63,904 bases of DNA from an uncultured Rickettsiales bacterium (GTDB taxonomy: Bacteria > Pseudomonadota > Alphaproteobacteria > Rickettsiales > JABDBP01), in contig CAYVHI010000001.1 of the NCBI GenBank assembly GCA_964450945.1, positions 1 to 63,904 of the forward strand, written 5' to 3'. A program made the translations under genes and the position numbers. A model generated the notes under the pieces. The model was given only the letters and a program-made list of their open reading frames with translations. It ran no database searches and was not told the DNA's origin. Each line of letters opens with the position of its first letter. Position 1 is the first letter of the stretch. This document shows, piece by piece, positions 18,043 to 63,152 of the stretch.

Positions 18043-18087
18043 TTCATAAAACCTTAACTTTATTAAAACCCCTAGATTTGCTATAAT
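18043..18087 (+). promoter_or_regulatory. CtrA-like box plus -10 of cassette 3
   Basis: ttcataaaaccttaac followed 23 nt later by tataat (gctataat). Confidence 0.55.
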
Positions 18088-18484: not shown

Positions 18485-18559
18485 TTAACAAAACCTTAAC
18501 ACTAAAAAACCCTAAAATACTATATAATCTGCGGTTCATCGTACCCTCGGGTTATAGAA
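18485..18559 (+). promoter_or_regulatory. CtrA box, -10 and leader start of cassette 4 (repeat copy 1)
   Basis: ttaacaaaaccttaac...tataat; 18496..18559 is identical to 19100..19163 (64 bp). Confidence 0.7.
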
Positions 18560-18670
18560 GTCTTTCTTCTTTCAAAATCACATCATGAGCAAGCCTAGCA
18601 AAGGTTGCCTGGAATGTGTTGAAGAACAGATTATCTATAAGCCCGCGAAGAGAAAGTCAGGAGGTGTATG

Positions 18671-19006
18671 ATGGAACTGTTCAACGGGCACGGCATCATG
18701 GTGACCGACAATGGCAAGAACATCGTCATCAAGGTCACCGGCAGCACCGCCAAGGTGGCGATCACCCCGCAGTTCATCGGCTACTACGTCGATGAGCCGC
18801 CACGGGCGATCATGATGCCCAAGTGCCAGCCCGTCACCGTTACCGGGAACGACATCGGAACGCTCACCGTCATCCTGCCCAAGGTCAGGGTGGAGACGGT
18901 CATCGGCACGGACGATGGCAAGAAGTCGGTCCGCCCGGTGATGACGGCCCTGATGCTGGAGATGCCGCAGGAAACCAAGTACTTGAGCATCGAGGAAGAC
19001 AACTAA
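18671..19006 (+). CDS. Cassette ORF, hypothetical beta-rich protein
   Basis: aggaggtgtatgATG; GC-rich codons; terminator at 19019..19064. Confidence 0.75.
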   Translation: MELFNGHGIMVTDNGKNIVIKVTGSTAKVAITPQFIGYYVDEPPRAIMMPKCQPVTVTGNDIGTLTVILPKVRVETVIGTDDGKKSVRPVMTALMLEMPQETKYLSIEEDN

Positions 19007-19088
19007 GCAGTAAATGATAACCCCCTTTCATACCTTCGTAGGTATGTCGCCTCAGGGGGTTTTTCATTTTAAAAAACTCCCTGCCCTT

Positions 19089-19163
19089 TTAACAAAACTT
19101 TAACACTAAAAAACCCTAAAATACTATATAATCTGCGGTTCATCGTACCCTCGGGTTATAGAA
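19089..19163 (+). promoter_or_regulatory. CtrA box, -10 and leader start of cassette 5 (repeat copy 2)
   Basis: ttaacaaaactttaac plus the 64-bp block identical to cassette 4. Confidence 0.7.
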
Positions 19164-19275
19164 CCACCGTTCTCCAAAACATACCACACTGTGCTACATA
19201 ACTTCGTGAGTTATGGCTGAAGTGTCGGTTGGAGGCGACCTCTATACCTGTGAAAAGAGAGTTAGGAGGTGTATG

Positions 19276-48485: not shown

Positions 48486-48764
48486 ATGCCAGTAAAAAAG
48501 AAAAAAAATTTTGTGGCGCAGGTAATGGCCGGAAAAGAGCGGGTTTATTATCTGCGCTGGGAGCGCAAGACCGGCGAGCCGGTATGGTATTTCATTCAGG
48601 CAGAGCCACCCAAGGAGAAGGCTTTATTAAAAGCTCTGGAGGGAAGTGCTGCTTTCCACCCTGAACAATTCGGCAAGATACTGAGTTGGGGTTATGGCGA
48701 ACCTTCCGTTGCCTTAAAAAAAGAAATGCAGGAAAAATATAAAATCCGCTATCAGGATGAATAG
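48486..48764 (+). CDS. Hypothetical protein
   Basis: 92 aa ORF starting 3 nt after the previous stop. Confidence 0.65.
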   Translation: MPVKKKKNFVAQVMAGKERVYYLRWERKTGEPVWYFIQAEPPKEKALLKALEGSAAFHPEQFGKILSWGYGEPSVALKKEMQEKYKIRYQDE

Positions 48765-48767
48765 TTT

Positions 48768-49109
48768 TTAACTTATCAACCCTTTTTCCTTGAACAGGTT
48801 CTGCAGGTCACCGGTCTGGAACATTTCGCGGCAGATATCAGCGCCGCCAACGAACTCACCTTTCACGAATAGCTGCGGGATGGTTGGCCAGTTGTTATAT
48901 TGCTTTATGCCTTCGCGCACATTTTCGTCAGCCAGAACATCCACATCCTTATATGGAACTTTCAGGTGGTTTAGAATCTGCACAACAGTCATGGAAAACC
49001 CGCAGCGCGGCGCTTCTCTTGTCCCTTTCAGGTAAACAATCACATCATTGTTTTTTATATCCTGTTCGATCTGGGCAATAACACTGTTATCAATTGCTGG
49101 CATGTTCAT
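48768..49109 (-). CDS. grxD: Monothiol glutaredoxin Grx4
   Basis: KGT...PRCGFS, WPTIPQLFVKGEFVGG. Confidence 0.96.
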   Translation of the reverse strand: MNMPAIDNSVIAQIEQDIKNNDVIVYLKGTREAPRCGFSMTVVQILNHLKVPYKDVDVLADENVREGIKQYNNWPTIPQLFVKGEFVGGADICREMFQTGDLQNLFKEKGLIS

Positions 49110-49207
49110 AAATATCTCCTTTAATTTAAGGAAAAAGGCAGTCTAGAGCACATTTTTCCATCAAACAAGAGCTTTTTATCATTATAATGGGGTATAACCC
49201 ATTAGAT

Positions 49208-49251
49208 TTCATAAAACTTTAACACAAAAAGCCTGTTTTTTTTGCTATAAT
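49208..49251 (+). promoter_or_regulatory. CtrA-like box plus -10 of the bolA/grxD array
   Basis: ttcataaaactttaac ... gctataat (22 nt gap to tataat). Confidence 0.6.
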
Positions 49252-49256
49252 CCACT

Positions 49257-49400
49257 CATTCAAATTGCTTATATTCAGGCTTAAGGATTACCCAGAAAGG
49301 GTATTTCTTGAATATAAGCGGTTCAAAAAGTATCAGCCCCACCTGTGGGGAAGATATTCCGGTAAGATAAACTGGCGAAAGCTGTAGACTTACTTTTTCA
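49257..49400 (+). ncRNA. Conserved structured leader, motif B copy 1
   Basis: Near-identical to the reverse complement of 58330..58472 and related to 56238..56376 and 57741..57875. Confidence 0.7.
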
Positions 49401-49427
49401 TATACAACCCAATCACACAACTGTAGT

Positions 49428-49462
49428 GCCTTATCCACTTCGTGAAACGTTTTCACGAGTGG
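49428..49462 (+). repeat. Motif D hairpin (gccttatccact...agtgg) before a cassette ORF
   Basis: Copies at 49428, 49765, 50204 and (minus strand) 58260..58302. Confidence 0.75.
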
Positions 49463-49489
49463 TTTTCTGTTCGTTCGGAGCAATTTCTC

Positions 49490-49714
49490 ATGCGTCGGGC
49501 TCAGATTATGGTGGAGGATGGCGGTAAAAAACTTACCGTAACTCCCCCCGCCGGAATCAAGGTACACCTGTGGGTGTACTTTGAAGGCAAGGACCGGAAA
49601 GCCAAAAAGTTCGGGAACATCAGGGCAAAAAAGGTCCTGACGTTCGACAAGGAAGTCACCGAAGTTGAGGCTTTCCACGGCCAGCATCTCGTCGGCCAGT
49701 GGGTGAAGCAGTAG
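49490..49714 (+). CDS. Cassette ORF, small beta-rich family 1
   Basis: ATG after ggag; GGKKLTVTPPAG.KV.LWV similar to 49825; hairpin at 49720..49754. Confidence 0.7.
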   Translation: MRRAQIMVEDGGKKLTVTPPAGIKVHLWVYFEGKDRKAKKFGNIRAKKVLTFDKEVTEVEAFHGQHLVGQWVKQ

Positions 49715-49824
49715 AAACAAAGGAGTCCCGCACGTTTGTGCGGGGCTCCGCCTTCTGTTGATGCGCCTTATCCACTTCGTGAAACGTTTTCACGAGTGGC
49801 TTCTATACATTCGGAGCTTTTTCT

Positions 49825-50160
49825 ATGTCAGAGTCTTCTGTTGAAAAAGTTACCATAACGGTAACTAATGGAGGTAAGCACCTGAAGGTGCTAATCCCTC
49901 CCGGAGAGGAAATTGATCTGTGGATCTGCCTGAACGCCTTCGTGGAAGATGGTTACGGGTTCAAGGATGAAACTGCTTTCAATTTCACTGGCAGCTGCTT
50001 CGAATCTACCTACCTCTATAAAATAAGAGAGGTGGTGGTTGCCCGAAGTCGCAGGCAAGGAAAACCTCTGGGCATCTCCACTATAAGGGACACGCCAGAG
50101 AAGTGCCCAAAAGATGCAAGAATTGTCCTCGCCAAATGGACGTGGAGGAAGAAGAAGTAA
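49825..50160 (+). CDS. Cassette ORF, small beta-rich family 1
   Basis: GGKHLKVLIPPGEEIDLWI; hairpin at 50164..50198 homologous to the previous one. Confidence 0.7.
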   Translation: MSESSVEKVTITVTNGGKHLKVLIPPGEEIDLWICLNAFVEDGYGFKDETAFNFTGSCFESTYLYKIREVVVARSRRQGKPLGISTIRDTPEKCPKDARIVLAKWTWRKKK

Positions 50161-50263
50161 ACCAAGGGGCCCTGCACTAACGTGCGGGGCTCCGCCTTCG
50201 AGAGCCTTATCCACTTTTAGGGAACGTTTCCCTAAGTGGCTTCTATACTTCTCAGGAGCAAAA

Positions 50264-50506
50264 ATGCACTTTGACGATGTCCTGCTCATCGTGAGTGGGA
50301 ACACTTTCACGCTGGAAGCCGAAAAGAGCCACATTCTTGACGTAAGAGTGTGGCTTGAAGGAGCCACATACTGGGAGACGAACACCCGCTGGTGGTGCTC
50401 TCAGGGTAAGATGCAAACCGCCTTTAAAGCCGATATCAAGGCGGTCGAGGTGTGGGAAATCGTGACAGTCACTTGCATTCGCAAGTGGCCGCCCGAAAAG
50501 AAATAA
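50264..50506 (+). CDS. Cassette ORF, small beta-rich family 1
   Basis: aggagcaaaaATG; ends IKAVEVW...IRKWPPE; terminator gaaaaccc..gggttttc. Confidence 0.7.
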   Translation: MHFDDVLLIVSGNTFTLEAEKSHILDVRVWLEGATYWETNTRWWCSQGKMQTAFKADIKAVEVWEIVTVTCIRKWPPEKK

Positions 50507-50546
50507 ACCAAAGAAAACCCTCAACTATGTTGGGGGTTTTCGCATT

Positions 50547-50765
50547 TTAAACTGCTGTTTTTATTGAGATGGCGTGGATGTTTTTTCCTTTTACGGCATC
50601 CTGCACCATGCGGTGCTGCTGGATTAGCGGCTTGCCCTTAAAACCCTCCCACACTACTTTCACATCGAAATGGTCCTGGTCTCCTGCGGTATCTATCACC
50701 TCTACTGTTGCTCCCGAAAAATTATTTTCCAGAATTGACTTAAGCTCTGCTGGCGCTATTGGCAT
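50547..50765 (-). CDS. bolA: BolA family protein
   Basis: GDQDHF.V.VV...F.GK.LIQQHRMV, IHAISIKT. Confidence 0.93.
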   Translation of the reverse strand: MPIAPAELKSILENNFSGATVEVIDTAGDQDHFDVKVVWEGFKGKPLIQQHRMVQDAVKGKNIHAISIKTAV

Positions 50766-51729
50766 TTTTATTCTCCAGTTTTTTCATACGCTCATATAAT
50801 TCTTTTATGGTCGGCACATCAACTTTCAACAGGTTGGCGATTTCAATCACCGTGCCGATTATACCGTCCAGTTCCATCCTTTTTCCCTTCTCGAAATCCT
50901 GCAGCATGGAAGTTTTATGGCTGCCGGATTTATGTCCCTCCTCCAATCTTTGTTCTACTGTCATGCCGAGATCGATGCCAAGGGAATCGCTAACTTTTTT
51001 CATCTCCGTCATTATATCGGCCGCCCATTGCTTGGTTTTTTCATCCTCAACGATTTCCTTCATGCCGAGTGATGTCAAAACACTTATAGGGTTGAAAGAT
51101 ATGTTGCCCCATAGTTTCAGCCATGTCTCATTTCTTATCTTTGCGGTGATTATCGGCCGCATGCCAGCCTTCTCAAGAATGCTGATAAGTGTTTTAAGGC
51201 GCAGCGTCTCTGTTCCTTCTAGCTCCCCAAACATCAGCCGCCTGCCGCCCATATAAGTTATAACGCCTGGCGCGGTGATGCCAGTGGAAATATAGATTAT
51301 CCCACCGATTATTCGCGCTGGCTCAATCAGCTTATTCAAATTATTTTCAGGATCAGAGATTTTTAAATGCGCACCCTTAAGAGGCCCATCATAACGCTCG
51401 AAATACCACCACGGAATGCCATTCATCACAGTGACAACAGCCGTGTTTTTCCCCAGTAGCGGTTTTATGCTTTTTGCGACTGATGGAACATCATGCCCCT
51501 TAACACTCACTATCACAAAATCCTGCTCACCCAGTGTTTCAGGCTTATCTGTAGCTTTTATTTTGCAGATTGTTTCTTTTTTTTCGGAATCGATTATTTT
51601 TAGGCCGTTTTTCTGAATGGCCTTTAAATGTTCACCGCGCGCGACGATGGAAATCTCTTCACCTGTTGTGAATAATTTGCTGGCGATAACACCGCCAACA
51701 CCACCCGCCCCGTAGACACATATTTTCAT
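50740..51729 (-). CDS. panE: Ketopantoate reductase family protein
   Basis: ICVYGAGGVG, RGEHL.AI...GL, W.KLWGN..FNPIS.LT, KTSMLQD.E.G...E.D.I.G. Confidence 0.85.
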   Translation of the reverse strand: MKICVYGAGGVGGVIASKLFTTGEEISIVARGEHLKAIQKNGLKIIDSEKKETICKIKATDKPETLGEQDFVIVSVKGHDVPSVAKSIKPLLGKNTAVVTVMNGIPWWYFERYDGPLKGAHLKISDPENNLNKLIEPARIIGGIIYISTGITAPGVITYMGGRRLMFGELEGTETLRLKTLISILEKAGMRPIITAKIRNETWLKLWGNISFNPISVLTSLGMKEIVEDEKTKQWAADIMTEMKKVSDSLGIDLGMTVEQRLEEGHKSGSHKTSMLQDFEKGKRMELDGIIGTVIEIANLLKVDVPTIKELYERMKKLENKNANSASRA

Positions 51730-51768
51730 GGAAGTATCTTATACAGAAATTTTTATAAAAACAAAATC

Positions 51769-52179
51769 CTATCTATCCCAGGATTCGCCCTGGTAGCCAC
51801 CATCTCTTGGCCGGTCTTCCAAGCCGTCATCAGGGTTGTGGGGCTTTTGTTCAATCCTAAGAAATTCCCTTATTACTCTGTTGCGTGCTTCCTGTGTAAT
51901 ATTTATTACTAGTAGATTCGGACCGCCTTCAATTATGCATTCGCCGGTACTTAAAGGGTGGGATAGAATAGTCCTAAGTGCTGTTTCAACCTCCGGCTTA
52001 GCACTAACCGTGGCTCTGTAGGATTTTTCTTCTTCACCTTCTACCTCTGGCGGCGCGCCTCTTGGACGGCGGTAAACAAATGTCCTTTCCCATATTGAAG
52101 GATCTTTAAGCAATTTTATCGCTTCTTTAATACTTGGATCTTTATCATCAAATAAAGTCATATCAGGCAGCCATTTCAA
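51769..52179 (-). CDS. Hypothetical protein
   Basis: 136 aa ORF. Confidence 0.55.
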   Translation of the reverse strand: MKWLPDMTLFDDKDPSIKEAIKLLKDPSIWERTFVYRRPRGAPPEVEGEEEKSYRATVSAKPEVETALRTILSHPLSTGECIIEGGPNLLVINITQEARNRVIREFLRIEQKPHNPDDGLEDRPRDGGYQGESWDR

Positions 52180-52705
52180 GATTAGGTTCTAGAATGGCAG
52201 TAGAAGTAATTGCCTGCTGGTAAACCATGTTTGCGTTGCCGCTACCGGTATTCGAATTATCATTGGCAAATTTTAACTCGTGGGTTTTTGGCTTTCTTGC
52301 CGAAGGTGTATCTTTTAAACCCATTGTCTCATAAGTTATGCCGCCATAGCTGGGTGCGAAATTGATAACCCTGACTTTTGAAAAGAATGTGTCTGTGGCT
52401 GTTGGCTGCTGGGCAATAACTTGCGCCAGGAACAAGCTTGAGAATGTTGAAACGATTTTTTCACTGAGCGTGCCAAGAATCTCTATCTGTTCGGCTGTTT
52501 CCGTATAATCTTCATCAAAATATATCGATACTTCTGGCTGTTTCTCCTTTTTCTTCACTGAATTTTTCAGTTTTGTGCCACTGTTCGAATTAACGGCAAC
52601 CGAAGCATATGGTTCTTTTGTGACAAGCTCTTCTACCACCCTGATATCAGGATTTATGATTGGTGCGGTGGCACTTATGCCTACAAGAGGAATTTGCTGA
52701 ATCAT
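52163..52705 (-). CDS. Hypothetical protein
   Basis: 180 aa ORF with RBS-like aggtaggtaag. Confidence 0.6.
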   Translation of the reverse strand: MIQQIPLVGISATAPIINPDIRVVEELVTKEPYASVAVNSNSGTKLKNSVKKKEKQPEVSIYFDEDYTETAEQIEILGTLSEKIVSTFSSLFLAQVIAQQPTATDTFFSKVRVINFAPSYGGITYETMGLKDTPSARKPKTHELKFANDNSNTGSGNANMVYQQAITSTAILEPNLEMAA

Positions 52706-52927
52706 CTTACCTACCTAGTGTTTGAAGTTACTACCTGCTACATGCAGGGTCAAATCTATTTTTTTGAAATTTTTATTTCAGATTGAGGGAGGTATAGATA
52801 AAGGATTTTTATTCCCATGCAATTAAATTATTTTAAAATTTTTTAAACGATTGAAGAGCAAGGATTAAGATAAAAAGGGCGGAACTTGTAATTAGAAAAT
52901 ATGGAGCTATTGTAGCCACACATAATT

Positions 52928-54517
52928 ATGTTCGAATCACTAAGAGATTTTATTGACCATCTTGAGAAGGAAGGTGAGCTGAGGCGTGTGAAAACGCAGG
53001 TTTCGCCGGTTCTTGAGATGACCGAGATCGGCACCCGCCTGATAGCGGAAGCCGGCCCCGCTATGCTGTTTGAAAATGTTGTTATGAACGAGGACAGAAC
53101 GTCCGAGCGAGCCTTCAGCCAGCGAAGCGACGCCTCATTGAATTTGCAGGAGGCAAATTCAGGAGGCATACCGCAGGGTATTAAAAATAAATCCATCCCT
53201 ACCCTGATAAACCTCTTCGGCACGGTAAACCGCGTTGCAATGGGTATGGGAACCACGCCGGAAGGTCTAAGGGAGGTGGGCAAGACCCTTGCTTTCCTGC
53301 GTCAGCCGGAGCCCCCTGGTGGCTGGAAGGAAGCAGCCGGTATGCTGCCGCTCCTCAAGAAGGTTATGGCCATGAAGCCAAAAACCGTCTCAAAGGCGCC
53401 CTGCCAGGAAGTGGTTTTGACCGGAAATGAGATAGATTTAGGGATACTTCCGATTCAGACATGCTGGCCGAACGAGCCATCCCCACTTATAACCTGGCCA
53501 TTGGTGGTAACTGAGGGGCCAAATAGGAATAATCCAAATAAAGACCCTACAGATAACTATAATCTTGGCATCTACCGTATGCAGGTTTTATCTAGCAATC
53601 AAACACTTATGCGATGGCTGAAGCATCGGGGCGGCGCCCAGCATTATGGAAAATGGAAAAAGGAAAAATCCGAACCATTTCCAGTTGCAGCAGTAATAGG
53701 GGCAGACCCAGGTACTATTTTAGCAGCAGTAACGCCGGTGCCGGAAACCATGTCAGAATACCAGTTTGCCGGGTTTCTAAGGGGTAAAGGAGTGGAGCTG
53801 GTGGATTGCAAGACAATACCGCTTAAAGTGCCAGCGCAAGCGGAAATCGTTTTGGAAGGCCATGTTTCGTTCGATGACTATCGTGATGAGGGACCATATG
53901 GTGACCATACCGGCTATTATAACTCGGTAGAAAAGTTCCCGGTATTCACTCTTTCTGCCATCACCATGCGGAAAAATCCGATTTACCTTTCCACCTATAC
54001 CGGAAAGCCGCCGGATGAACCTTCCGTGCTAGGTGAGGCGCTTAATGAAGTATTCATCCCGCTCCTCCAGCAGCAGTTCCCCGAAATAGTGGATTTCTAC
54101 CTGCCACCGGAAGGTTGCTCATATAGGATTGCTGTAGTCTCTATTAAAAAGGCTTATCCCGGCCACGCCAAGCGCATAATGATGGGCATTTGGAGCCACC
54201 TTCGCCAGTTCATGTATACGAAATGGGTTGTTATTGTTGATGACGATATCAATATCCGTGACTGGAAGGAAGTTATGTGGGCAATCTCCACCCGCATGGA
54301 TTTCGGCCGCGATATGACTGTTATTGAGAATACTCCGATCGATTACCTTGATTTTGCCTCACCCGTCTCCGGGCTAGGCAGCAAGCTTGGGTTCGATGCC
54401 ACCAACAAAATTGGCGCTGAAACTGCCCGCGAATGGGGCAGAAAAATCGAGATGGAAGGAAAAGTAAAAGAAAAGATTGATAAAATCTGGGCAGAACTAA
54501 AACCTTCTAAAAACTAA
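52928..54517 (+). CDS. ubiD: UbiD-family decarboxylase with an in-frame insertion
   Basis: [63 protein letters not shown]. Confidence 0.97.
53104..53172 (+). repeat. Short repeat, family 2, in frame inside ubiD
   Basis: cgagcgagccttcagccagcgaagcgac plus hairpin gaatttgc-aggag-gcaaattc. Confidence 0.65.
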
Positions 54518-54569
54518 TTTAAAATGAAAAACCCTACAGAATCCTTTTAGGACGCTGTAGGGTTTTTCT

Positions 54570-54869
54570 TTAGACAACCCAAAGAGACTTTATTGACTCG
54601 TGTGGGTCATCGAGAAATTCCGCTTTACCAGGCTGGATGGTTTTCCAGTGGTGGAACTCTATTTGGCAAGGTTCAGGATTAGTTATCTGAACCTTACCAT
54701 GTCCTGTAATGTAGAAAATTTGCCCTGAAGAAACTTTCAGGGTTATTTCCTTTTCTACAGGAATTTTTATCCCGCCAAAAACCCAGGGGCATAAGAGACC
54801 TTCTATGTCACAGACAGTTAGGTCTTCATCTCCCAGATTCTTGATCAAGATATTTGGCATCTTCCTCAC
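54570..54869 (-). CDS. Cassette ORF, family 2
   Basis: gaaaggaggtgaggaagATG (likely start MPNILIKNLG at 54860); nested terminator at 54526..54568. Confidence 0.7.
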   Translation of the reverse strand: MRKMPNILIKNLGDEDLTVCDIEGLLCPWVFGGIKIPVEKEITLKVSSGQIFYITGHGKVQITNPEPCQIEFHHWKTIQPGKAEFLDDPHESIKSLWVV

Positions 54870-54932
54870 CTCCTTTCGGTGCCGTTAAATGCCTTAAGAA
54901 ATCCATAACAACGGGGTGGCCAATCACCTTGT

Positions 54933-55280
54933 TCATGATTCACCCTTCTTTCTGCGGTTAACAGTATCGCTTCGCCTCGAAATTGCGATGATGCGACACC
55001 GCCCCTTCCACACCTGGCCTTTCTTCAGCCACTTCTTTTCAGTAAAGAAGAGTTCGACTGAGGCCATGAAACCAAGATTCTCGACTTTTATGGGTATCTT
55101 GGCTTCTTTACACGAAACAATTACTGAGCAGGCACGGTCGAAAATGTAAAACTTTCTTGGTTCTACAATTTCCTGCCTCTGGTGCAGTAACTTCCCGCGT
55201 TTTATTACAAACCACCTAACCAGAAGTCTGTACTTCGAGCTTAGGTTTGTAATTTTGACGTTTAGGTTGCGCCTTTTCAT
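54933..55280 (-). CDS. Cassette ORF, family 2
   Basis: VKITNLS...LLVRW...KRG resembles 56506 (VLIKNVG...IHVEW..LKRKRG). Confidence 0.6.
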   Translation of the reverse strand: MKRRNLNVKITNLSSKYRLLVRWFVIKRGKLLHQRQEIVEPRKFYIFDRACSVIVSCKEAKIPIKVENLGFMASVELFFTEKKWLKKGQVWKGRCRIIAISRRSDTVNRRKKGES

Positions 55281-55320
55281 GAGGCTTTCTCCAAAAAAAG
55301 ACAAGGTTCTGAAAAAACCT

Positions 55321-55396
55321 CTTCTCTGTTCCAAGAGTGAAGGGGAGTGCCTTTTTTATACGGCCATTTCTGACCTAAGGCGAAACCCCTTCATCC
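55321..55396 (-). repeat. Motif C intergenic structured repeat, copy 1
   Basis: gaaggggtttcgccttaggtcagaaatggcc...aggcactccccttc; also at 55778..55845 and 57215..57290. Confidence 0.75.
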
Positions 55397-55401
55397 TTTT
55401 T

Positions 55402-55734
55402 TCAACCAGTCGGATTCTCTTTTGTCTGAGCGGTTGGATCCTTTAGGTGCAAGGATCCTTGCCCGTTCTCAACAACGAGACGGGCCCAGAGGGTTCCATC
55501 TGGGTGAAAGAGTTCAATCTTTCCATCCATGTGAATTTCAGTTGCTCCCGTTTTATGCGGGCGAATTTCAACAACTTGTTCCTCACAATCTGCTATGGTC
55601 ACCAATAGGACAGTAGCGCCTTTACAGTGGCCATTGTAAGCTACAACCCTGTGCGCAGTGTTGCCGCAGTGGCTACAGTGCGCACTATGGTTGTCAAACT
55701 CACCAGCCGTACCGTATTTATAACGGTACTCCAT
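55402..55734 (-). CDS. Cassette ORF, hypothetical (Cys/His-rich N-terminus)
   Basis: aaaaggagaaaaagttATG; HCSHC motif. Confidence 0.65.
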   Translation of the reverse strand: MEYRYKYGTAGEFDNHSAHCSHCGNTAHRVVAYNGHCKGATVLLVTIADCEEQVVEIRPHKTGATEIHMDGKIELFHPDGTLWARLVVENGQGSLHLKDPTAQTKENPTG

Positions 55735-55777
55735 AACTTTTCTCCTTTTGGGCGAAAGTTGTGGGATCAGAAAACCT

Positions 55778-55845
55778 CTTCTCTGTTCCGAAAGTGAAGG
55801 GGAGTGCCTTTTTATGCGGCCATTTCTGGCCTAAGGCAAACACCT
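55778..55845 (-). repeat. Motif C copy 2
   Basis: gccttaggccagaaatggccgcataaaaaggcactccccttcactttcggaacagagaag. Confidence 0.75.
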
Positions 55846-55857
55846 CCACCCCAAAAA

Positions 55858-56118
55858 TTATTTGTCCCTTGTTGACGGCCACTCCGCTAAGGGAGTGACA
55901 TCATCAACAAAGGCCCAAACTTTGACGTACACAACCTTCCGGTTATAGTATGTCTGGGTCCAGATTTCTTCTCCTTCCGGGGGAGAAACGCTGTAATACC
56001 AGCTTGGAATGGTTGCCCCTTCCAAGCCGACTTCAACATCAACCGGTTCCTTCCGGTTGATACCGTTGATCAAGACACAATTTTTTTCCTGATCAACGTA
56101 GGCCCGGATTTTTGCCAT
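55858..56118 (-). CDS. Cassette ORF, small beta-rich family 1
   Basis: gaaaggaggtgagaaagATGGC; PVDVEVG...VYVKVW...PLAEWP. Confidence 0.75.
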   Translation of the reverse strand: MAKIRAYVDQEKNCVLINGINRKEPVDVEVGLEGATIPSWYYSVSPPEGEEIWTQTYYNRKVVYVKVWAFVDDVTPLAEWPSTRDK

Positions 56119-56237
56119 CTTTCTCACCTCCTTTCTTTGGCGGTTAGATGACAAATGATCGAAGCTATCGGAAGCACGCAAGGAAACGATCCATGCATGA
56201 TTGTTTATGGTTTTTTATGTTTTTGGATTTCTATTTA

Positions 56238-56376
56238 GGAAGGCAAGGCGAACACCACGAAGGCCGTTTGTCTTGTCTGGAATGCCATGCCCACAGGTGG
56301 GTTTGGCACTTAATGAACCGCCATCTTTCCAAGAATGTTTTGCATTCCTTAACCTTAAAAAGAGGCAATTTAAGAA
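56238..56376 (-). ncRNA. Motif B copy 2
   Basis: aaattgc..ttaagga..gcggttca..acccacctgtggg; promoter box at 56409..56424. Confidence 0.65.
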
Positions 56377-56505
56377 CTTACATTATAGCAAATATGTAAA
56401 AGGTTAGTGTTACAGTTTTGTGAAATATGAAGGATATTTAAAATAAAAAACCCTCCTGGTCATCCCTTTGTCTTTTTAAGACTTAGGGTGCCGGAGGGTT
56501 CCTTT

Positions 56506-56856
56506 TTACTCTTCTTCCTCTTCGAATGGGCCGTTTTCTTTTTCCCACTCTTTTAAGGAAGTAAGTGTTAAATGTGGACAAATTGTTGTTTCCCCTGGCC
56601 TTAAAAGGTGGGGATACATACTGAATGTCCACTCCTCAACAAAAACAACCTCACCTTGGTTGGAGATTTTTGCGTTTCCACTGCCACTCTTAAAAGAGAA
56701 GCTGTGGGAAACACTTATCTCCACTGCATCCTCAACCAGTACTTTATCTTTTGGTTTGAGGTTGCAGTAACCGCCCCTTTTTCTTTTAAGGCAGCTCCAC
56801 TCAACATGGATGTTATTTCCACCCACGTTTTTTATGAGAACTTTGTTTTCTGGCAT
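56506..56856 (-). CDS. Cassette ORF, family 2
   Basis: gaaaggaggtaaaATG; nested terminator at 56452..56503. Confidence 0.7.
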   Translation of the reverse strand: MPENKVLIKNVGGNNIHVEWSCLKRKRGGYCNLKPKDKVLVEDAVEISVSHSFSFKSGSGNAKISNQGEVVFVEEWTFSMYPHLLRPGETTICPHLTLTSLKEWEKENGPFEEEEE

Positions 56857-56886
56857 TTTACCTCCTTTCAGGTTAGTGCCAAAAAA

Positions 56887-57123
56887 TCAAAATCTCTCCC
56901 AAACCGCTAACTCTTGGTAATGGGGAGAACCCATAACTTTCACCTCACAAATACGTGAGAGGAATCGCTTCCTCCACACATTTGGCTTTCTCATGTCCTC
57001 TTCATCGAGGACATAAGAAACTTCAGCTCCATCTTTTAACAGGATCTCAATCTGGACTGGCAGGTATGCTGCCAGCCCCGTAACGACTATATTTTTGCCG
57101 TTACGGGAGACTTTGATTTCCAT
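56887..57123 (-). CDS. Cassette ORF, small beta-rich family 1
   Basis: agggaggtaatATG; EIKV...V.TGL....PV, ICEVKVM...LAVW. Confidence 0.7.
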   Translation of the reverse strand: MEIKVSRNGKNIVVTGLAAYLPVQIEILLKDGAEVSYVLDEEDMRKPNVWRKRFLSRICEVKVMGSPHYQELAVWERF

Positions 57124-57214
57124 ATTACCTCCCTTAAGGTATTGTTGCAGCAACACCATAAAAAAAGAAAGAACATCACCCAGTAAAAACAACGGGGCGG
57201 CCGGATGGCCAGAA

Positions 57215-57290
57215 CTTCCCTGTTCCGAAGATGAAGGGGAGTGCCTTTTTATGATACCATTTCTGGCCTAAGGCGAAACCCCTTCATCCT
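57215..57290 (-). repeat. Motif C copy 3
   Basis: ggatgaaggggtttcgccttaggccagaaatgg...aggcactccccttcatcttcggaacagggaag. Confidence 0.75.
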
Positions 57291-57302
57291 TTTCCAAAAG
57301 TC

Positions 57303-57623
57303 TTAGCCAGTCAATTCCGGCGGCGGAATTGTTGGACTTTGAGGTGGGGGTGGCGGCGGAACATCGCTTTCCGACTTCCACTGAGCAAGAGGAGGAGGAT
57401 TCTCCTCCTCGCTGAACCCGTATCCCCAGACTGCGACGTAATTGATTGGTCGCAGCCGGGAAACACAGCCCCAGCTTTTCTCGCCGCGCTCGGGTACGCT
57501 ATGGTACCAATCGCAATGATTGGTTCCATAATACCCGATCTGGACATCTACGGGATCGATGTGATCCAGCCCCGTAATGATGACGCCGCGGTGAGTTTCT
57601 GCCACCTTGATCTCGACTGCCAT
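57303..57623 (-). CDS. Cassette ORF, small beta-rich family 1 with Pro-rich tail
   Basis: Same RBS context as 56118; PVDVQIG...INYVAVW...PLAQWK. Confidence 0.75.
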   Translation of the reverse strand: MAVEIKVAETHRGVIITGLDHIDPVDVQIGYYGTNHCDWYHSVPERGEKSWGCVSRLRPINYVAVWGYGFSEEENPPPLAQWKSESDVPPPPPPQSPTIPPPELTG

Positions 57624-57740
57624 CTTTCTCACCTCCTTTCTTTGGTGGTTAGATGACAATGGATAGAGGCTATCGGAAGCACGCATGGAAACGATCCATG
57701 CATGATGCTTGGTTTTTTGTTTTTGGATTTCTATGTGATG

Positions 57741-57875
57741 AAGCAGGCTGCGGCACTAAAGCCAGTTTATCCTGCTTAGAATATCATCCCCACAGGTGGG
57801 TCTGATACTTTTTGAACCGCCATCTTTCCAAGAATGTTTTACATTCCTTAACCTTAAAAAGAGGCAATTTAAGAA
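57741..57875 (-). ncRNA. Motif B copy 3
   Basis: Part of an ~310-bp duplication (57624..57935 vs 56119..56435); promoter box at 57908..57923. Confidence 0.65.
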
Positions 57876-58000
57876 TTTACATTATACCAAATAAGTAAAA
57901 GGCTAGTGTTACAGTTTTATGAAATATGAAGGGGTTTTTCTTTGGCCTTTAAAATGCGAAAACCCCCGTGCCTTTTAAGCTATTCGGGGGTTTTCTTCGG

Positions 58001-58210
58001 TTAGAACTGAAGGAAGATGAGCTGTTCTCCACGACAGACTGCTTCCTCCATGGAAGCGTAGATTGCGATCGTGTCGAGGAGCTTGGCCTTATAAGTCTCG
58101 TTCTTCTTCAGCTGGACGATGTTCCCGTTCACGAAGAGAACAATATCCTTCGCCGCTCCCACCTCGTAGTCCGAGATGGTGAAGTGAGGCGTCATCAGAA
58201 ACCCGAGCAT
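58001..58210 (-). CDS. Cassette ORF, hypothetical (69 aa)
   Basis: agaggatttaccATG; GC-rich codons; terminator gaaaaccccc..gggggttttc. Confidence 0.6.
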   Translation of the reverse strand: MLGFLMTPHFTISDYEVGAAKDIVLFVNGNIVQLKKNETYKAKLLDTIAIYASMEEAVCRGEQLIFLQF

Positions 58211-58329
58211 GGTAAATCCTCTACAGTTGGTAACAGTAAGCCCAACTGTTATTGGAAAGCCACTTGCTTGCGGAACAATTCCGCTGCATTAGTGGATAAG
58301 GCACGAACTTTGGTGTTGGGATTTATATT

Positions 58330-58472
58330 TGAAAAAGTAAGGCTACAGCTTTCGCCAGTTTATCTTACCTGAATATCATGCCCACAGGTGGGTTGATATT
58401 TAATGAACCGCTTTATATTCAAGAAATATCCGTGTGGATAATCCTTAAGCCTGAACATAAGCAATTTGAATG
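58330..58472 (-). ncRNA. Motif B copy 4
   Basis: Near-identical to 49257..49400; promoter box at 58505..58520; motif D at 58260..58302. Confidence 0.7.
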
Positions 58473-58533
58473 AACCAATTATAGCAAAAGAACAATACTT
58501 TTGTGTTACAGTTTTATGAAATATGTGGGGTTA

Positions 58534-59019
58534 CTATTCCTGTATAATCTCTATACAGTTAGATCCTGGGGCATCACAGTTTATATCATCTTGAACTGCC
58601 GGAGCAGAAGGCACAGCGGCCGGAGCGCTTGCTGTTGTATTGACCTCCGCAGCACTAGGGGCCGGAGCGGTATTTCTGGTGTTAACCACAGCCTGACCTT
58701 TGAATGTAGGTACATTTTGTTGGTTTGAAGAGCCGTTTTGCAGTAAAGATGGGTTACCGGCAACCCCTCTACCAAGCAATCCTTCTGCCTTGCTGTTAAC
58801 GTAGACAGCTTTTGTATTTTTTGATTGTGAGTTTAGCCTATTAAAGAATTCCGGGTCTTTATAACCTGTGATTACGCCGCCACTTGCATATGGGTTCTGA
58901 ACAGGAACATCAACACCTGCATCTGGTGTGGGCCCAGAAGGGATTGAAAGCTCCGCTCTGGCTCCGCCAGATATCAAGAAGCAGGTAATACCCAAAATAT
59001 AGCAAATTTTCTTAATCAT
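58534..59019 (-). CDS. Secreted hypothetical protein
   Basis: MIKKICYILGITCFLISGGARA signal peptide; low-complexity APA tract; C-terminal Cys pair. Confidence 0.7.
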   Translation of the reverse strand: MIKKICYILGITCFLISGGARAELSIPSGPTPDAGVDVPVQNPYASGGVITGYKDPEFFNRLNSQSKNTKAVYVNSKAEGLLGRGVAGNPSLLQNGSSNQQNVPTFKGQAVVNTRNTAPAPSAAEVNTTASAPAAVPSAPAVQDDINCDAPGSNCIEIIQE

Positions 59020-59257
59020 TTTTCCTCACTCTTATATCATTCTAACACATATTTATTAATGTAAGATTAATTTTTTGTTTCATTTTATTTCGCCCAACAT
59101 ATTGATATTGTTATATAATTCTCTTCGATAACTAGCGTTAACAATGGTTAAACTAGTTCAAATTTTAGCTATCTGATAAAAAATAGTATGGATTATGTAA
59201 TCAAAAATTCACACTTTCTGGGATATAAATCTTTATAATTAGCCCTGTTCTACTGTC

Positions 59258-59375
59258 TTTTCAGGAAGATTAGTTATGGTGCCAGAAATGGTACTGAAAA
59301 AATACTCAAAAGCACTTTAGTGCTTGAAGCCGGCCCCTTTGCCGTCTTTATGAGTTAACTAATCTTCCTAAAAAG
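59258..59375 (+). ncRNA. Structured 5' leader of the thiC-proximal cassette
   Basis: Perfect 14-bp stem aggaagattagtta / taactaatcttcct; inner gtgcca-gaaa-tggtac, actca/tgagt and aagcac/gtgctt stems. Confidence 0.6.
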
Positions 59376-59399
59376 CTAGTAGGATGGAGGATTCCAGCC

Positions 59400-59540
59400 A
59401 TGTTCGACCCGCTCGGTTTCGCCAAAAAGTCGTGGACGGAGATCGGCATCACGCTCGGCGCGGTTATCATCGGCGTGACGGTGGCCGTCTACATCGCGTT
59501 CCCGGTGATCAAGATGTTCATCGAAAACATGAAGCCGTAA
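59400..59540 (+). CDS. Cassette ORF, 46 aa single-TM peptide
   Basis: ggaggattccagccATG; MFDPLGFAKKSWTEIGITLGAVIIGVTVAVYIAFPVIKMFIENMKP; GC-rich codons; terminator cagacccc..ggggtctg. Not in the ORF track (under 60 aa). Confidence 0.65.
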   Translation: MFDPLGFAKKSWTEIGITLGAVIIGVTVAVYIAFPVIKMFIENMKP

Positions 59541-62519: not shown

Positions 62520-62717
62520 TGTAGCTATCCTCCTTTCTTGGGCGATATGCTTAAGACTTTTTAGGGCCCGTCACCCTAAAAAGTCGAAAGTCCAAACTGA
62601 ACTTAACTGAACGTTTCAGTTATACACCTAAATTGTTAAAATTTTATGAATGGAGAATTTTTTTTGACTTTAAACGGTTCGGGGCCCCACTCCTTTAGAG
62701 AGGGGGCCCCGATGTTT

Positions 62718-62972
62718 TTATACTGGTTGTTTATCCTCTGGCCAGTATGCCAGGTAGCCTCGGCTTCGTTTGGTCATCACCATGACGCAGGTGATGATTT
62801 TCTCAGAATTCCCGCCTGTCGCTTCAATCACGTCGTCGAATCCCTCGCAGGTTCCGTCATCATATTGGATGATGACATCGATTCCTGTGATTGTCAGATC
62901 AAGCAACTTGACACTGGCTTCGTGCTTGTCACTGCTGACGTTGATTGCGACGCTCTTGGTAGCCTTCGTCAT
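62718..62972 (-). CDS. Cassette ORF, small beta-rich family 1
   Basis: aggaggtgtgtgATG; ends IITCVMVM...YLAYWPED; terminator cggggcccc..ggggccccg. Confidence 0.7.
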   Translation of the reverse strand: MTKATKSVAINVSSDKHEASVKLLDLTITGIDVIIQYDDGTCEGFDDVIEATGGNSEKIITCVMVMTKRSRGYLAYWPEDKQPV

Positions 62973-63136
62973 CACACACCTCCTTCTTGATCATGAGTTT
63001 CAGATCAGTGTGGTTCTAACTTGCTACGGGCACTTTGGCCTACTAAGCAAGTAATTTATGAAGAACCAAACTTCTGTTCTGTAACCCAGTGGGTAGTGTG
63101 AACCCAGAATTATATAGGAAATATACTGGTTTTAGT

Positions 63137-63152
63137 GTTAAAGATTTATTAA
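63137..63152. promoter_or_regulatory. CtrA-type box shared by divergent genes
   Basis: Minus strand ttaataaatctttaac, with tataat 22 nt downstream, then ctgggttcacactacccactgggttacagaac (motif A). Confidence 0.6.

Follow-up and report, generated by a model that had tools for sequence, protein, structure and literature searches.

The DNA analyzed here is a stretch of 63,904 nucleotides (nt) from an uncultured Rickettsiales bacterium (GenBank assembly GCA_964450945.1, contig CAYVHI010000001.1, positions 1 to 63,904), referred to below as the window. It carries four copies of a repeated element of about 135 nt, motif B, which is a previously undescribed structured domain that opens the predicted long 5' untranslated leaders of operons encoding acquired orphan small proteins. 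Motif B is a genuine structured RNA family. It is present in eight copies in a single genome and is known from one species only. With respect to function, the arrangement of the leaders suggests a cis-acting 5'-terminal domain that may stabilize the message and dock a shared factor, a reading that is favored here with about even confidence.

Copies of motif B

An earlier note on the window, made from the sequence alone, had described four copies with invariant strings, paired regions that vary together, and a TATAAT directly before each copy. All four copies are present at the sites given there. Their refined limits are 49263–49394 on the forward strand (copy 1) and 56370–56242, 57869–57742 and 58466–58336 on the reverse strand (copies 2, 3 and 4). 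The strings aaattgc, ttaagga, gcggttca, cccacctgtggg and a(t/c)aaac occur in each of the four, and the motif starts 10 nt beyond the TATAAT. The compensatory examples that had been listed (tatca/tgata and tgcca/tggca; gtaag/cttac, gcagg/cctgc and acaag/cttgc), as well as the two versions of the first stem, had been read correctly.

The repetition is far beyond chance. The string CCCACCTGTGGG occurs four times against 0.13 expected, and a degenerate 32-nt pattern of motif B occurs three times against 0.00 expected, with the fourth copy carrying a 1-nt deletion. A search of the whole genome (1.74 Mb, 70 contigs) with a covariance model built on these four copies (R1) identified three further full-length copies outside the window, all on the forward strand of their contigs: C5:17807–17960 (80 bits), C1:143190–143345 (69 bits) and C15:17686–17835 (52 bits). 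A second model (R2) added a diverged eighth copy without the third hairpin at C36:16314–16445 on the reverse strand (33.6 bits).

The genome, that of an alphaproteobacterium with 41% GC, was assembled from metagenomes of biofilter and freshwater samples. Since an independently assembled Logan contig from a public run contains copy 4 and the start of copy 3 in identical form, and since the stretch was found in eight biofilter metagenome runs from four studies and in one freshwater run, the sequence is not an artifact of a single metagenome assembly.

RNA fold and covariation

The fold consists of three tandem hairpins, P1, P2 and P3, separated by short linkers. P1 is a stem of 17 base pairs (bp) that begins with AAAUUGC and ends with GCGGUU in five copies. 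It is interrupted by an asymmetric internal loop, or bulge, with the invariant (U)UAAGGA on its 5' side, and P1a, an inner hairpin of variable length, forms its cap. The lower stem of P2 covaries; above it lie an internal loop and a further stem with an invariant CCUG loop at its tip. P3 is composed of a 6-bp stem, a 5' internal loop of the form GANAAAC, and a small inner stem that is less regular.

In copy 1, P1 spans 49263–49323 with the UUAAGGA bulge at 49281–49287 and a P1a of UACCC/GGGUA, P2 spans 49329–49358 with the CCUG loop at 49342–49345, and P3 spans 49361–49394 with GAUAAAC at 49366–49372. P1, P2 and P3 of copy 2 are located at 56370–56316 (bulge 56352–56346), 56310–56281 (a GUGCC/GGCAU variant) and 56277–56242. 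The corresponding positions are 57869–57815 (bulge 57851–57845), 57809–57780 and 57776–57742 in copy 3, and 58466–58406 (bulge 58448–58442), 58400–58372 and 58369–58336 in copy 4. The eighth copy keeps P1, the UUAAGGA bulge, P1a and P2, the last of these with a new GCAC/GUGC lower stem beneath an unchanged CCCACCUGUGGG tip; its P3 is replaced by a simple AAAAAGCC-CGCU-GGCUUUUU hairpin.

Substitutions between the copies cluster at paired positions and compensate. In the eight-copy alignment, standard pairs make up 95.5% of 292 pair cells, a share that drops to 40–46% when the 3' partners are slid by 1–3 columns. Compensatory double changes, affecting both sides, are found in 27 of the 38 pairs, and none of 500 shuffles reached any of five covariation measures. 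The seven-copy alignment gave 95.4% standard pairs and 24 pairs with changes on both sides. The covariation check called for by the earlier note turned out in its favor, with support growing when the four diverged copies were added. The P1a hairpin, which the model treats as an insertion, covaries by eye. Its variants are UACCC/GGGUA, UAUCC/GGAUA, UUAUCC/GGAUAA and AUUGCC/GGCAAU, with AUUGC/GCAAU, UUGC/GCAA and AAUG/CAUU as further forms.

Folding of single sequences gives the same helices, with z-scores of -5.2, -3.2, -3.1, -1.7, -4.5, -2.7 and -0.7 for the seven copies. The sense fold is more stable than the antisense fold in five of the seven and G-U pairs are numerous, which argues for a strand-specific fold formed by RNA of the strand that carries the downstream open reading frames (ORFs). 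A coding explanation was ruled out by the 1-nt indels between copies and by the lack of conservation of the short ORFs inside the motif.

Search for known families and relatives

The whole window was compared with the 4227 models of Rfam 15 and returned no match at gathering thresholds. At E ≤ 10, the region 48500–59500 gave a single match overlapping the motif, a chance antisense match to SCARNA1 (E = 3.1, 23 bits against a threshold of 45). The Rfam check proposed in the earlier note therefore yielded no match at gathering thresholds and none of relevance at E ≤ 10. ARAGORN found no transfer RNA or transfer-messenger RNA. Having survived both the Rfam and the covariation tests, the designation of a novel structured RNA stands.

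About 880 related genomes were scanned with the covariance models, with sensitivity in the large genome sets limited by strict filters. No true match was obtained in 60 relatives, in 400 genomes of the same order, or, with the motif B model, in 400 genomes sampled across the class. A match in one genome of the order set (G228) was rejected as a false positive since it lacks P2 and lies inside an ORF. The six nearest relatives also gave no motif B match when the filters were made lax. These relatives are distant; for example, the GrxD of the one other genus in the family shows 57% identity. Scans with patterns, which require exact matches, found none for the two main patterns in GTDB genome contigs and none for all three patterns in IMG/VR. 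The one pattern match in Joint Genome Institute metagenomes was attributed to chance, being inside a high-GC transporter gene and not recognized by the model. A blastn search of phage and plasmid collections produced no match. Contigs of other runs, searched at 80% likeness, contained the identical sequence only, so no diverged strains were found. Within the window, a weak model hit at 62620–62723 proved to be a bidirectional terminator and not a further copy.

Promoters and the 5' position of motif B

An extended -10 box (TGnTAtaaT) precedes all eight copies, with the promoter calls made by consensus reading. The box ends 10–11 nt before P1 in all copies but the eighth, where the distance is 17 nt. 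Because the box is so near, P1 is predicted to begin about 3–5 nt into the transcript.

The four window copies share, 21–22 nt before the -10 box, an upstream block of the form TT[C/A]A-N7-[T/G]TAAC that is similar to a CtrA box. The predicted promoter module of copy 1 (49208..49251, forward strand) consists of TTCATAAAACTTTAAC, a 22-nt spacer and TGC-TATAAT, with the TATAAT at 49246–49251. The modules of the other three, on the reverse strand, each have a 21-nt spacer: TTCACAAAACTGTAAC and TGC-TATAAT for copy 2 (56382..56424), TTCATAAAACTGTAAC and TGG-TATAAT for copy 3 (57881..57923), and TTCATAAAACTGTAAC and TGC-TATAAT for copy 4 (58478..58520, TATAAT at 58483–58478). A CtrA orthologue is present in the genome, with a score of 404.7 bits that exceeds the NCBIfam equivalog cut-off; GcrA was not found in this genome. 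The four copies outside the window are without the CtrA-box-like block. With half of the copies lacking the shared block while keeping the distance to the -10 box, conservation of the fold does not depend on the promoter module, and its place at the predicted 5' end is fixed.

Motif B makes up the first 135 nt or so of leaders with a total length of 232–303 nt and lies in sense orientation to the ORFs. The next 35 nt form an A/C-rich spacer with 0–3 G in each of the seven full copies, against an expectation of about 7. In copy 1, this unstructured spacer is located at 49397..49431 on the forward strand and has 3 G in 35 nt. Non-homologous hairpins come next, and the region of ribosome binding, with a strong Shine-Dalgarno sequence ahead of the start codon, is locally structured. 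Except in the paralogous copies 2 and 3, long-range pairing of the motif with the leader downstream of it was no better than in shuffles. In these two copies, the 3' strand of P1 (UUGGAAAGAUGGCGG) shares a 10-mer, GAAAGAUGGC, with the start-codon region of the downstream ORF (in copy 3, at 57815–57830 and 57612–57630 on the reverse strand, and likewise in copy 2). This would allow the 5' strand of P1 to form an alternative pairing with the translation start. The shared 10-mer was not seen in copies other than these two.

Acquired cargo genes

The ORFs behind motif B encode proteins of 67–134 amino acids (aa). Copy 1 is followed by three orphan ORFs of 74, 111 and 80 aa (49490..50506, forward strand). 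On the reverse strand, copy 2 is followed by orphan ORFs of 86, 110, 115 and 96 aa (54570..56118), copy 3 by three of 106, 78 and 116 aa that end in a strong terminator (56506..57623), and copy 4 by one of 69 aa (58001..58210) that is preceded by a 262-nt leader. The first ORFs are mutually unrelated save one paralogous pair, namely those behind copies 2 and 3. No cargo ORF has a match in Pfam or NCBIfam, and two cargo proteins that were tested have no relatives among 5.8 billion proteins. Without homologues, the cargo offers no useful alignment for structure prediction.

The GC content at third codon positions (GC3) was surveyed for cassette ORFs of the window (49490–50506 and 54570–58210), of contigs C5 and C15, and of C1:143499–144654. 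It is 0.54–0.74 for the first ORFs against 0.32–0.43 for rpoB, rpsL, dnaK, groEL and atpD. A GC3 above that of highly expressed housekeeping genes marks these ORFs as compositionally foreign rather than codon-optimized. One later cassette ORF reaches 0.85. In several cassette ORFs, as many as 12 nt of the Shine-Dalgarno sequence agree with the 3' end of 16S (GAAAGGAGGUAA).

The 1.4-kb array of copy 1 lies between bolA (50547–50765, reverse strand; PF01722) and grxD (48771–49109, reverse strand). In the sister genus, bolA and grxD are 3 nt apart. Thus, the copy-1 cassette, including its leader, is an insertion. At the same site, a palindromic CATTATAATG at 49182–49191 might act as a bidirectional -10 box and so provide grxD with a new promoter. 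Another cassette, at C15:17686–19035 with a 134-aa orphan, is located directly upstream of a rimP-like ORF, as judged by reading only.

A proposed cis-acting role for motif B

The presence of unrelated cargo behind one conserved leader points to a generic, gene-independent role, in which motif B would be an expression module common to the cassettes that works in cis once transcription has been initiated. Stabilizers of mRNA classically place a stem only a few nt from the 5' end, and the 5'-terminal P1 stem may similarly cap the message against 5'-end-dependent decay. Such stabilizers need only a terminal hairpin. As in the Escherichia coli ompA 5' untranslated region, a stable stem starts only a few nt into the long leader, but motif B goes beyond such stabilizers in having two more conserved helices and about 20 conserved unpaired nt. 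The conservation of these nucleotides and helices implies recognition by a common partner. The invariant unpaired UUAAGGA, CCUG, UC and GANAAAC would constitute the docking surface for one putative trans-acting partner, candidates being an RNA-binding protein, the ribosome or RNA polymerase. This partner would set the stability, elongation or translation of whichever foreign gene lies downstream.

Several points weigh against such a role. Stabilization alone is insufficient as an account of motif B since a plain 5' stabilizer needs neither three conserved helices nor invariant loops. As the eighth copy lacks P3, this hairpin is dispensable for at least one function. The transcript start, the transcript ends and transcription itself were inferred from consensus promoters, and a search for RNA runs carrying the stretch returned none. 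The alignment was fitted to the covariance model. Furthermore, all eight copies are paralogues in one genome of one species, and four of them form close pairs (copies 1 and 4, copies 2 and 3), so that the covariation counts overstate the number of independent events.

It is also conceivable, though unlikely, that motif B is the RNA part of a novel system that licenses foreign genes at a stage after initiation. The leader fold, either alone in the manner of a put RNA on RNA polymerase or together with a dedicated host factor, would then decide whether an orphan cassette is expressed, and motif B would be one module of a promoter-leader-hairpin toolkit attached to incoming genes.

Comparison with known systems and alternative explanations

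The leaders share several features with putL and putR of HK022 (PMC9378689): a promoter-proximal position on genes of foreign elements, one element per unit, a location upstream of hairpins or terminators and, if the proposed role is correct, action in cis. As a processive antiterminator, the nascent leader would bind RNA polymerase and read through terminator-like hairpins before and between the cassette ORFs, which is a possible but unlikely explanation. The motif starts a few nt from the predicted transcript start, as does putL (PMC9378689), and its P1 stem lies 10–17 nt past the -10 box in all eight copies, the start itself being deduced from the consensus. There is one motif per transcription unit, five GC-rich hairpins precede the last ORF of the copy-1 array, two of which (49439–49459 and 49722–49749) score as terminator-like, and stem-loops are found between the ORFs of other motif B operons as well. 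Most of these downstream hairpins are without U tracts, however, so read-through may need no help. The put RNA, about 70 nt in length, comprises two stems and a triplex, and its target is the β' zinc-binding domain (PMC9378689), whereas motif B, with three tandem hairpins and an inner hairpin (three or four helices in all), is twice as long, does not reduce to two stem-loops, and has no Rfam antitermination RNA similar to it in sequence. A different resemblance is to the Brt1–9 RNAs of Bartonella henselae (PMC5387305). Both are multicopy (nine Brt RNAs, eight copies of motif B), lineage-restricted and strongly structured alphaproteobacterial RNAs that are clustered in plastic regions directly upstream of small genes, and gating of read-through has been proposed for each. 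A stand-alone small RNA or attenuator of this kind, abundant at about 140–200 nt, active in trans and with conditional read-through into the ORFs, is rather improbable for motif B. It would be consistent with UUUUU after P3 in copies 1 and 4, with a terminator-like hairpin and U tract 40 nt further on in copy 1, and with the terminator-like AAAAAGCC-CGCU-GGCUUUUU hairpin at the end of the eighth copy, but a U tract after P3 or the next hairpin is missing from five of the eight copies, and no conserved seed-like loop is complementary to ribosome-binding sites. The sequence from the motif to the ORFs shows no evident promoter, which would make the ORFs dependent on read-through. In addition, the Brt RNAs are 194–203 nt in length, have a conserved terminator 10–18 nt before the gene, and always precede XRE helix-turn-helix regulators (PMC5387305). 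Motif B, of about 135 nt, is instead followed by 90–170 nt of variable leader and unrelated orphans without a helix-turn-helix; no XRE-type trp gene lies within 10–18 nt, and the ORFs that are found 90–170 nt away have no Pfam domain. Control by CsrA is improbable to a somewhat greater degree. Like CsrA/RsmA leaders, motif B leaders present a single-stranded A(N)GGA within a structured leader and a Shine-Dalgarno sequence containing GGA, and a CsrA dimer bound to the bulged AAGGA and to the Shine-Dalgarno GGA could repress translation of the cassette. The genome has csrA, with a score of 88.7 bits as an NCBIfam CsrA equivalog (cut-off 73), and the promoter module of this gene is the one found before four copies of motif B. 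The csrA leader contains 8 GGA in 127 nt against 1.6 expected, and the UUAAGGAWU of motif B, which agrees with the A(N)GGA core, does not vary among the eight copies and is single-stranded. A GGA is found inside the Shine-Dalgarno sequence in six of seven copies. Nevertheless, the bulged GGA is the only conserved one, total counts in motif B leaders are at expectation (3–8 against about 3) rather than enriched, the two candidate sites are about 190–270 nt apart, and CsrA binding leaves unexplained the extra helices, with the conservation of P2 and P3, and the pinning to the 5' end.

Invariant unpaired nucleotides in a covarying scaffold at the 5' end of an mRNA, unmatched in Rfam, could also describe the aptamer of a riboswitch that senses a metabolite or an ion. 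This is very unlikely since the controlled genes, the first ORFs included, are orphans that are not related to one another and share neither a metabolic nor a transport theme, the tandem hairpins have no enclosing junction, and the element is limited to one species. The 35-nt unstructured spacer and the downstream hairpins, which differ between copies, leave no shared expression platform or mutually exclusive pairing, and no pairing between the motif and the downstream sequence is common to all copies. Slightly less probable again is that motif B has no function as RNA and is duplicated promoter-plus-leader DNA or the palindromic remnant of a mobile element. Four copies do share promoter and leader as a single block, the leader modules are mosaic, and in copy 4 an imperfect direct repeat, TTCATT(C)AAAT, flanks P1 on both sides. 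Reuse of promoters before unrelated genes is documented (PMC3575422), and these putatively mobile promoters resemble motif B in placing near-identical promoter/leader blocks before non-homologous genes of one genome. The unit that is conserved here differs, being an RNA fold that persists behind unrelated promoters: four copies keep the fold behind unrelated upstream sequence, substitutions at paired positions are compensatory in 27 of 38 pairs, the G-U pairs make the fold strand-specific, and the 1-nt indels exclude coding. Among the functions offered by the earlier note, a cis-regulatory leader or a protein-binding scaffold is favored by the 5' position and sense orientation; nothing supports the third, a self-cleaving ribozyme that would process the 5' end of cassette mRNAs, beyond motif B being a compact, conserved, multicopy structured RNA. 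No Rfam ribozyme family matched even at E ≤ 10, there is no pseudoknotted or junction core, and the extreme 5' position leaves nothing to cleave off, all of which makes a ribozyme exceedingly unlikely. Integron attC sites are single imperfect hairpins that carry RYYYAAC / GTTRRRY core sites and terminate cassettes lacking a promoter. An attC site was rejected since motif B consists of three hairpins in tandem, reading of the copies revealed no match to the core sites, and each copy lies behind its own -10 box, upstream of sense ORFs.

As a multicopy, lineage-specific 5' leader, motif B is a familiar kind of element. What it adds is a structured RNA family of three or four helices, with compensatory changes in eight copies and unmatched in Rfam. 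The placement of one conserved 5' leader before unrelated foreign orphans amid housekeeping genes suggests that acquired genes may be under generic control at the RNA level. Should a partner come to light, or should antitermination, stabilization or a similar activity be demonstrated, motif B would be a portable expression or regulatory module and would offer a handle on how an alphaproteobacterium with a reduced genome domesticates ORFan genes. The weight of these considerations is limited by their origin in a single uncultured species and by transcripts predicted from consensus promoters.

Other elements of the cassettes

The leaders of the copy-1 and copy-4 cassettes contain a second repeated element, motif D, which folds into a terminator-like hairpin composed of GCCUUAUCCACU, a stem and UUUUCUGUU. 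It is located at 49428..49465 on the forward strand and recurs at 49765–49802 and 50204–50241, so that one precedes each ORF of the copy-1 array. The third of these keeps its stem by compensatory changes (UUCGUGAAA/UUUCACGAG against UUUUAGGGAA/UUCCCUAAG). Another motif D is found in the leader before the copy-4 ORF at about 58304–58260 on the reverse strand. A further repeated hairpin (49715–49755 and 50159–50199) follows the first and second ORFs of the copy-1 array.

The promoter module, written as TT[ACT]A-N7-[TG]TAAC followed by TATAAT 21–23 nt on, has about 18 occurrences in the genome, mostly before cassettes of small genes, and resembles a CtrA box that overlaps the -35 region. In the window, it is found at 18043, 18485, 19089, 49208, 56424, 57923, 58520 and 63152; sites elsewhere include C1:64518–68160 and C7:45039. 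The module also precedes other types of leader, and one copy drives csrA. The csrA gene itself (C7:45039–45420, forward strand) has a GC3 of 0.73, similar to the cassette ORFs, and may be an acquired, autoregulated cassette gene.

One of these other leaders forms a second family that is unrelated to motif B. It has the form GGTTCAYC..ACCC..GGGTTAYAGAAC with a closing stem completed by GTTNTGTAACCC and the ribosome-binding site directly after it. Members are located in the window at 63060–63152 (reverse strand) and 18485–19240 (forward strand) and at C1:64400–67460 (reverse strand). Given this family behind the same promoter module, the lineage appears to have at least two structured leader families for its cassettes. 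The leader modules are mosaic between cassettes.

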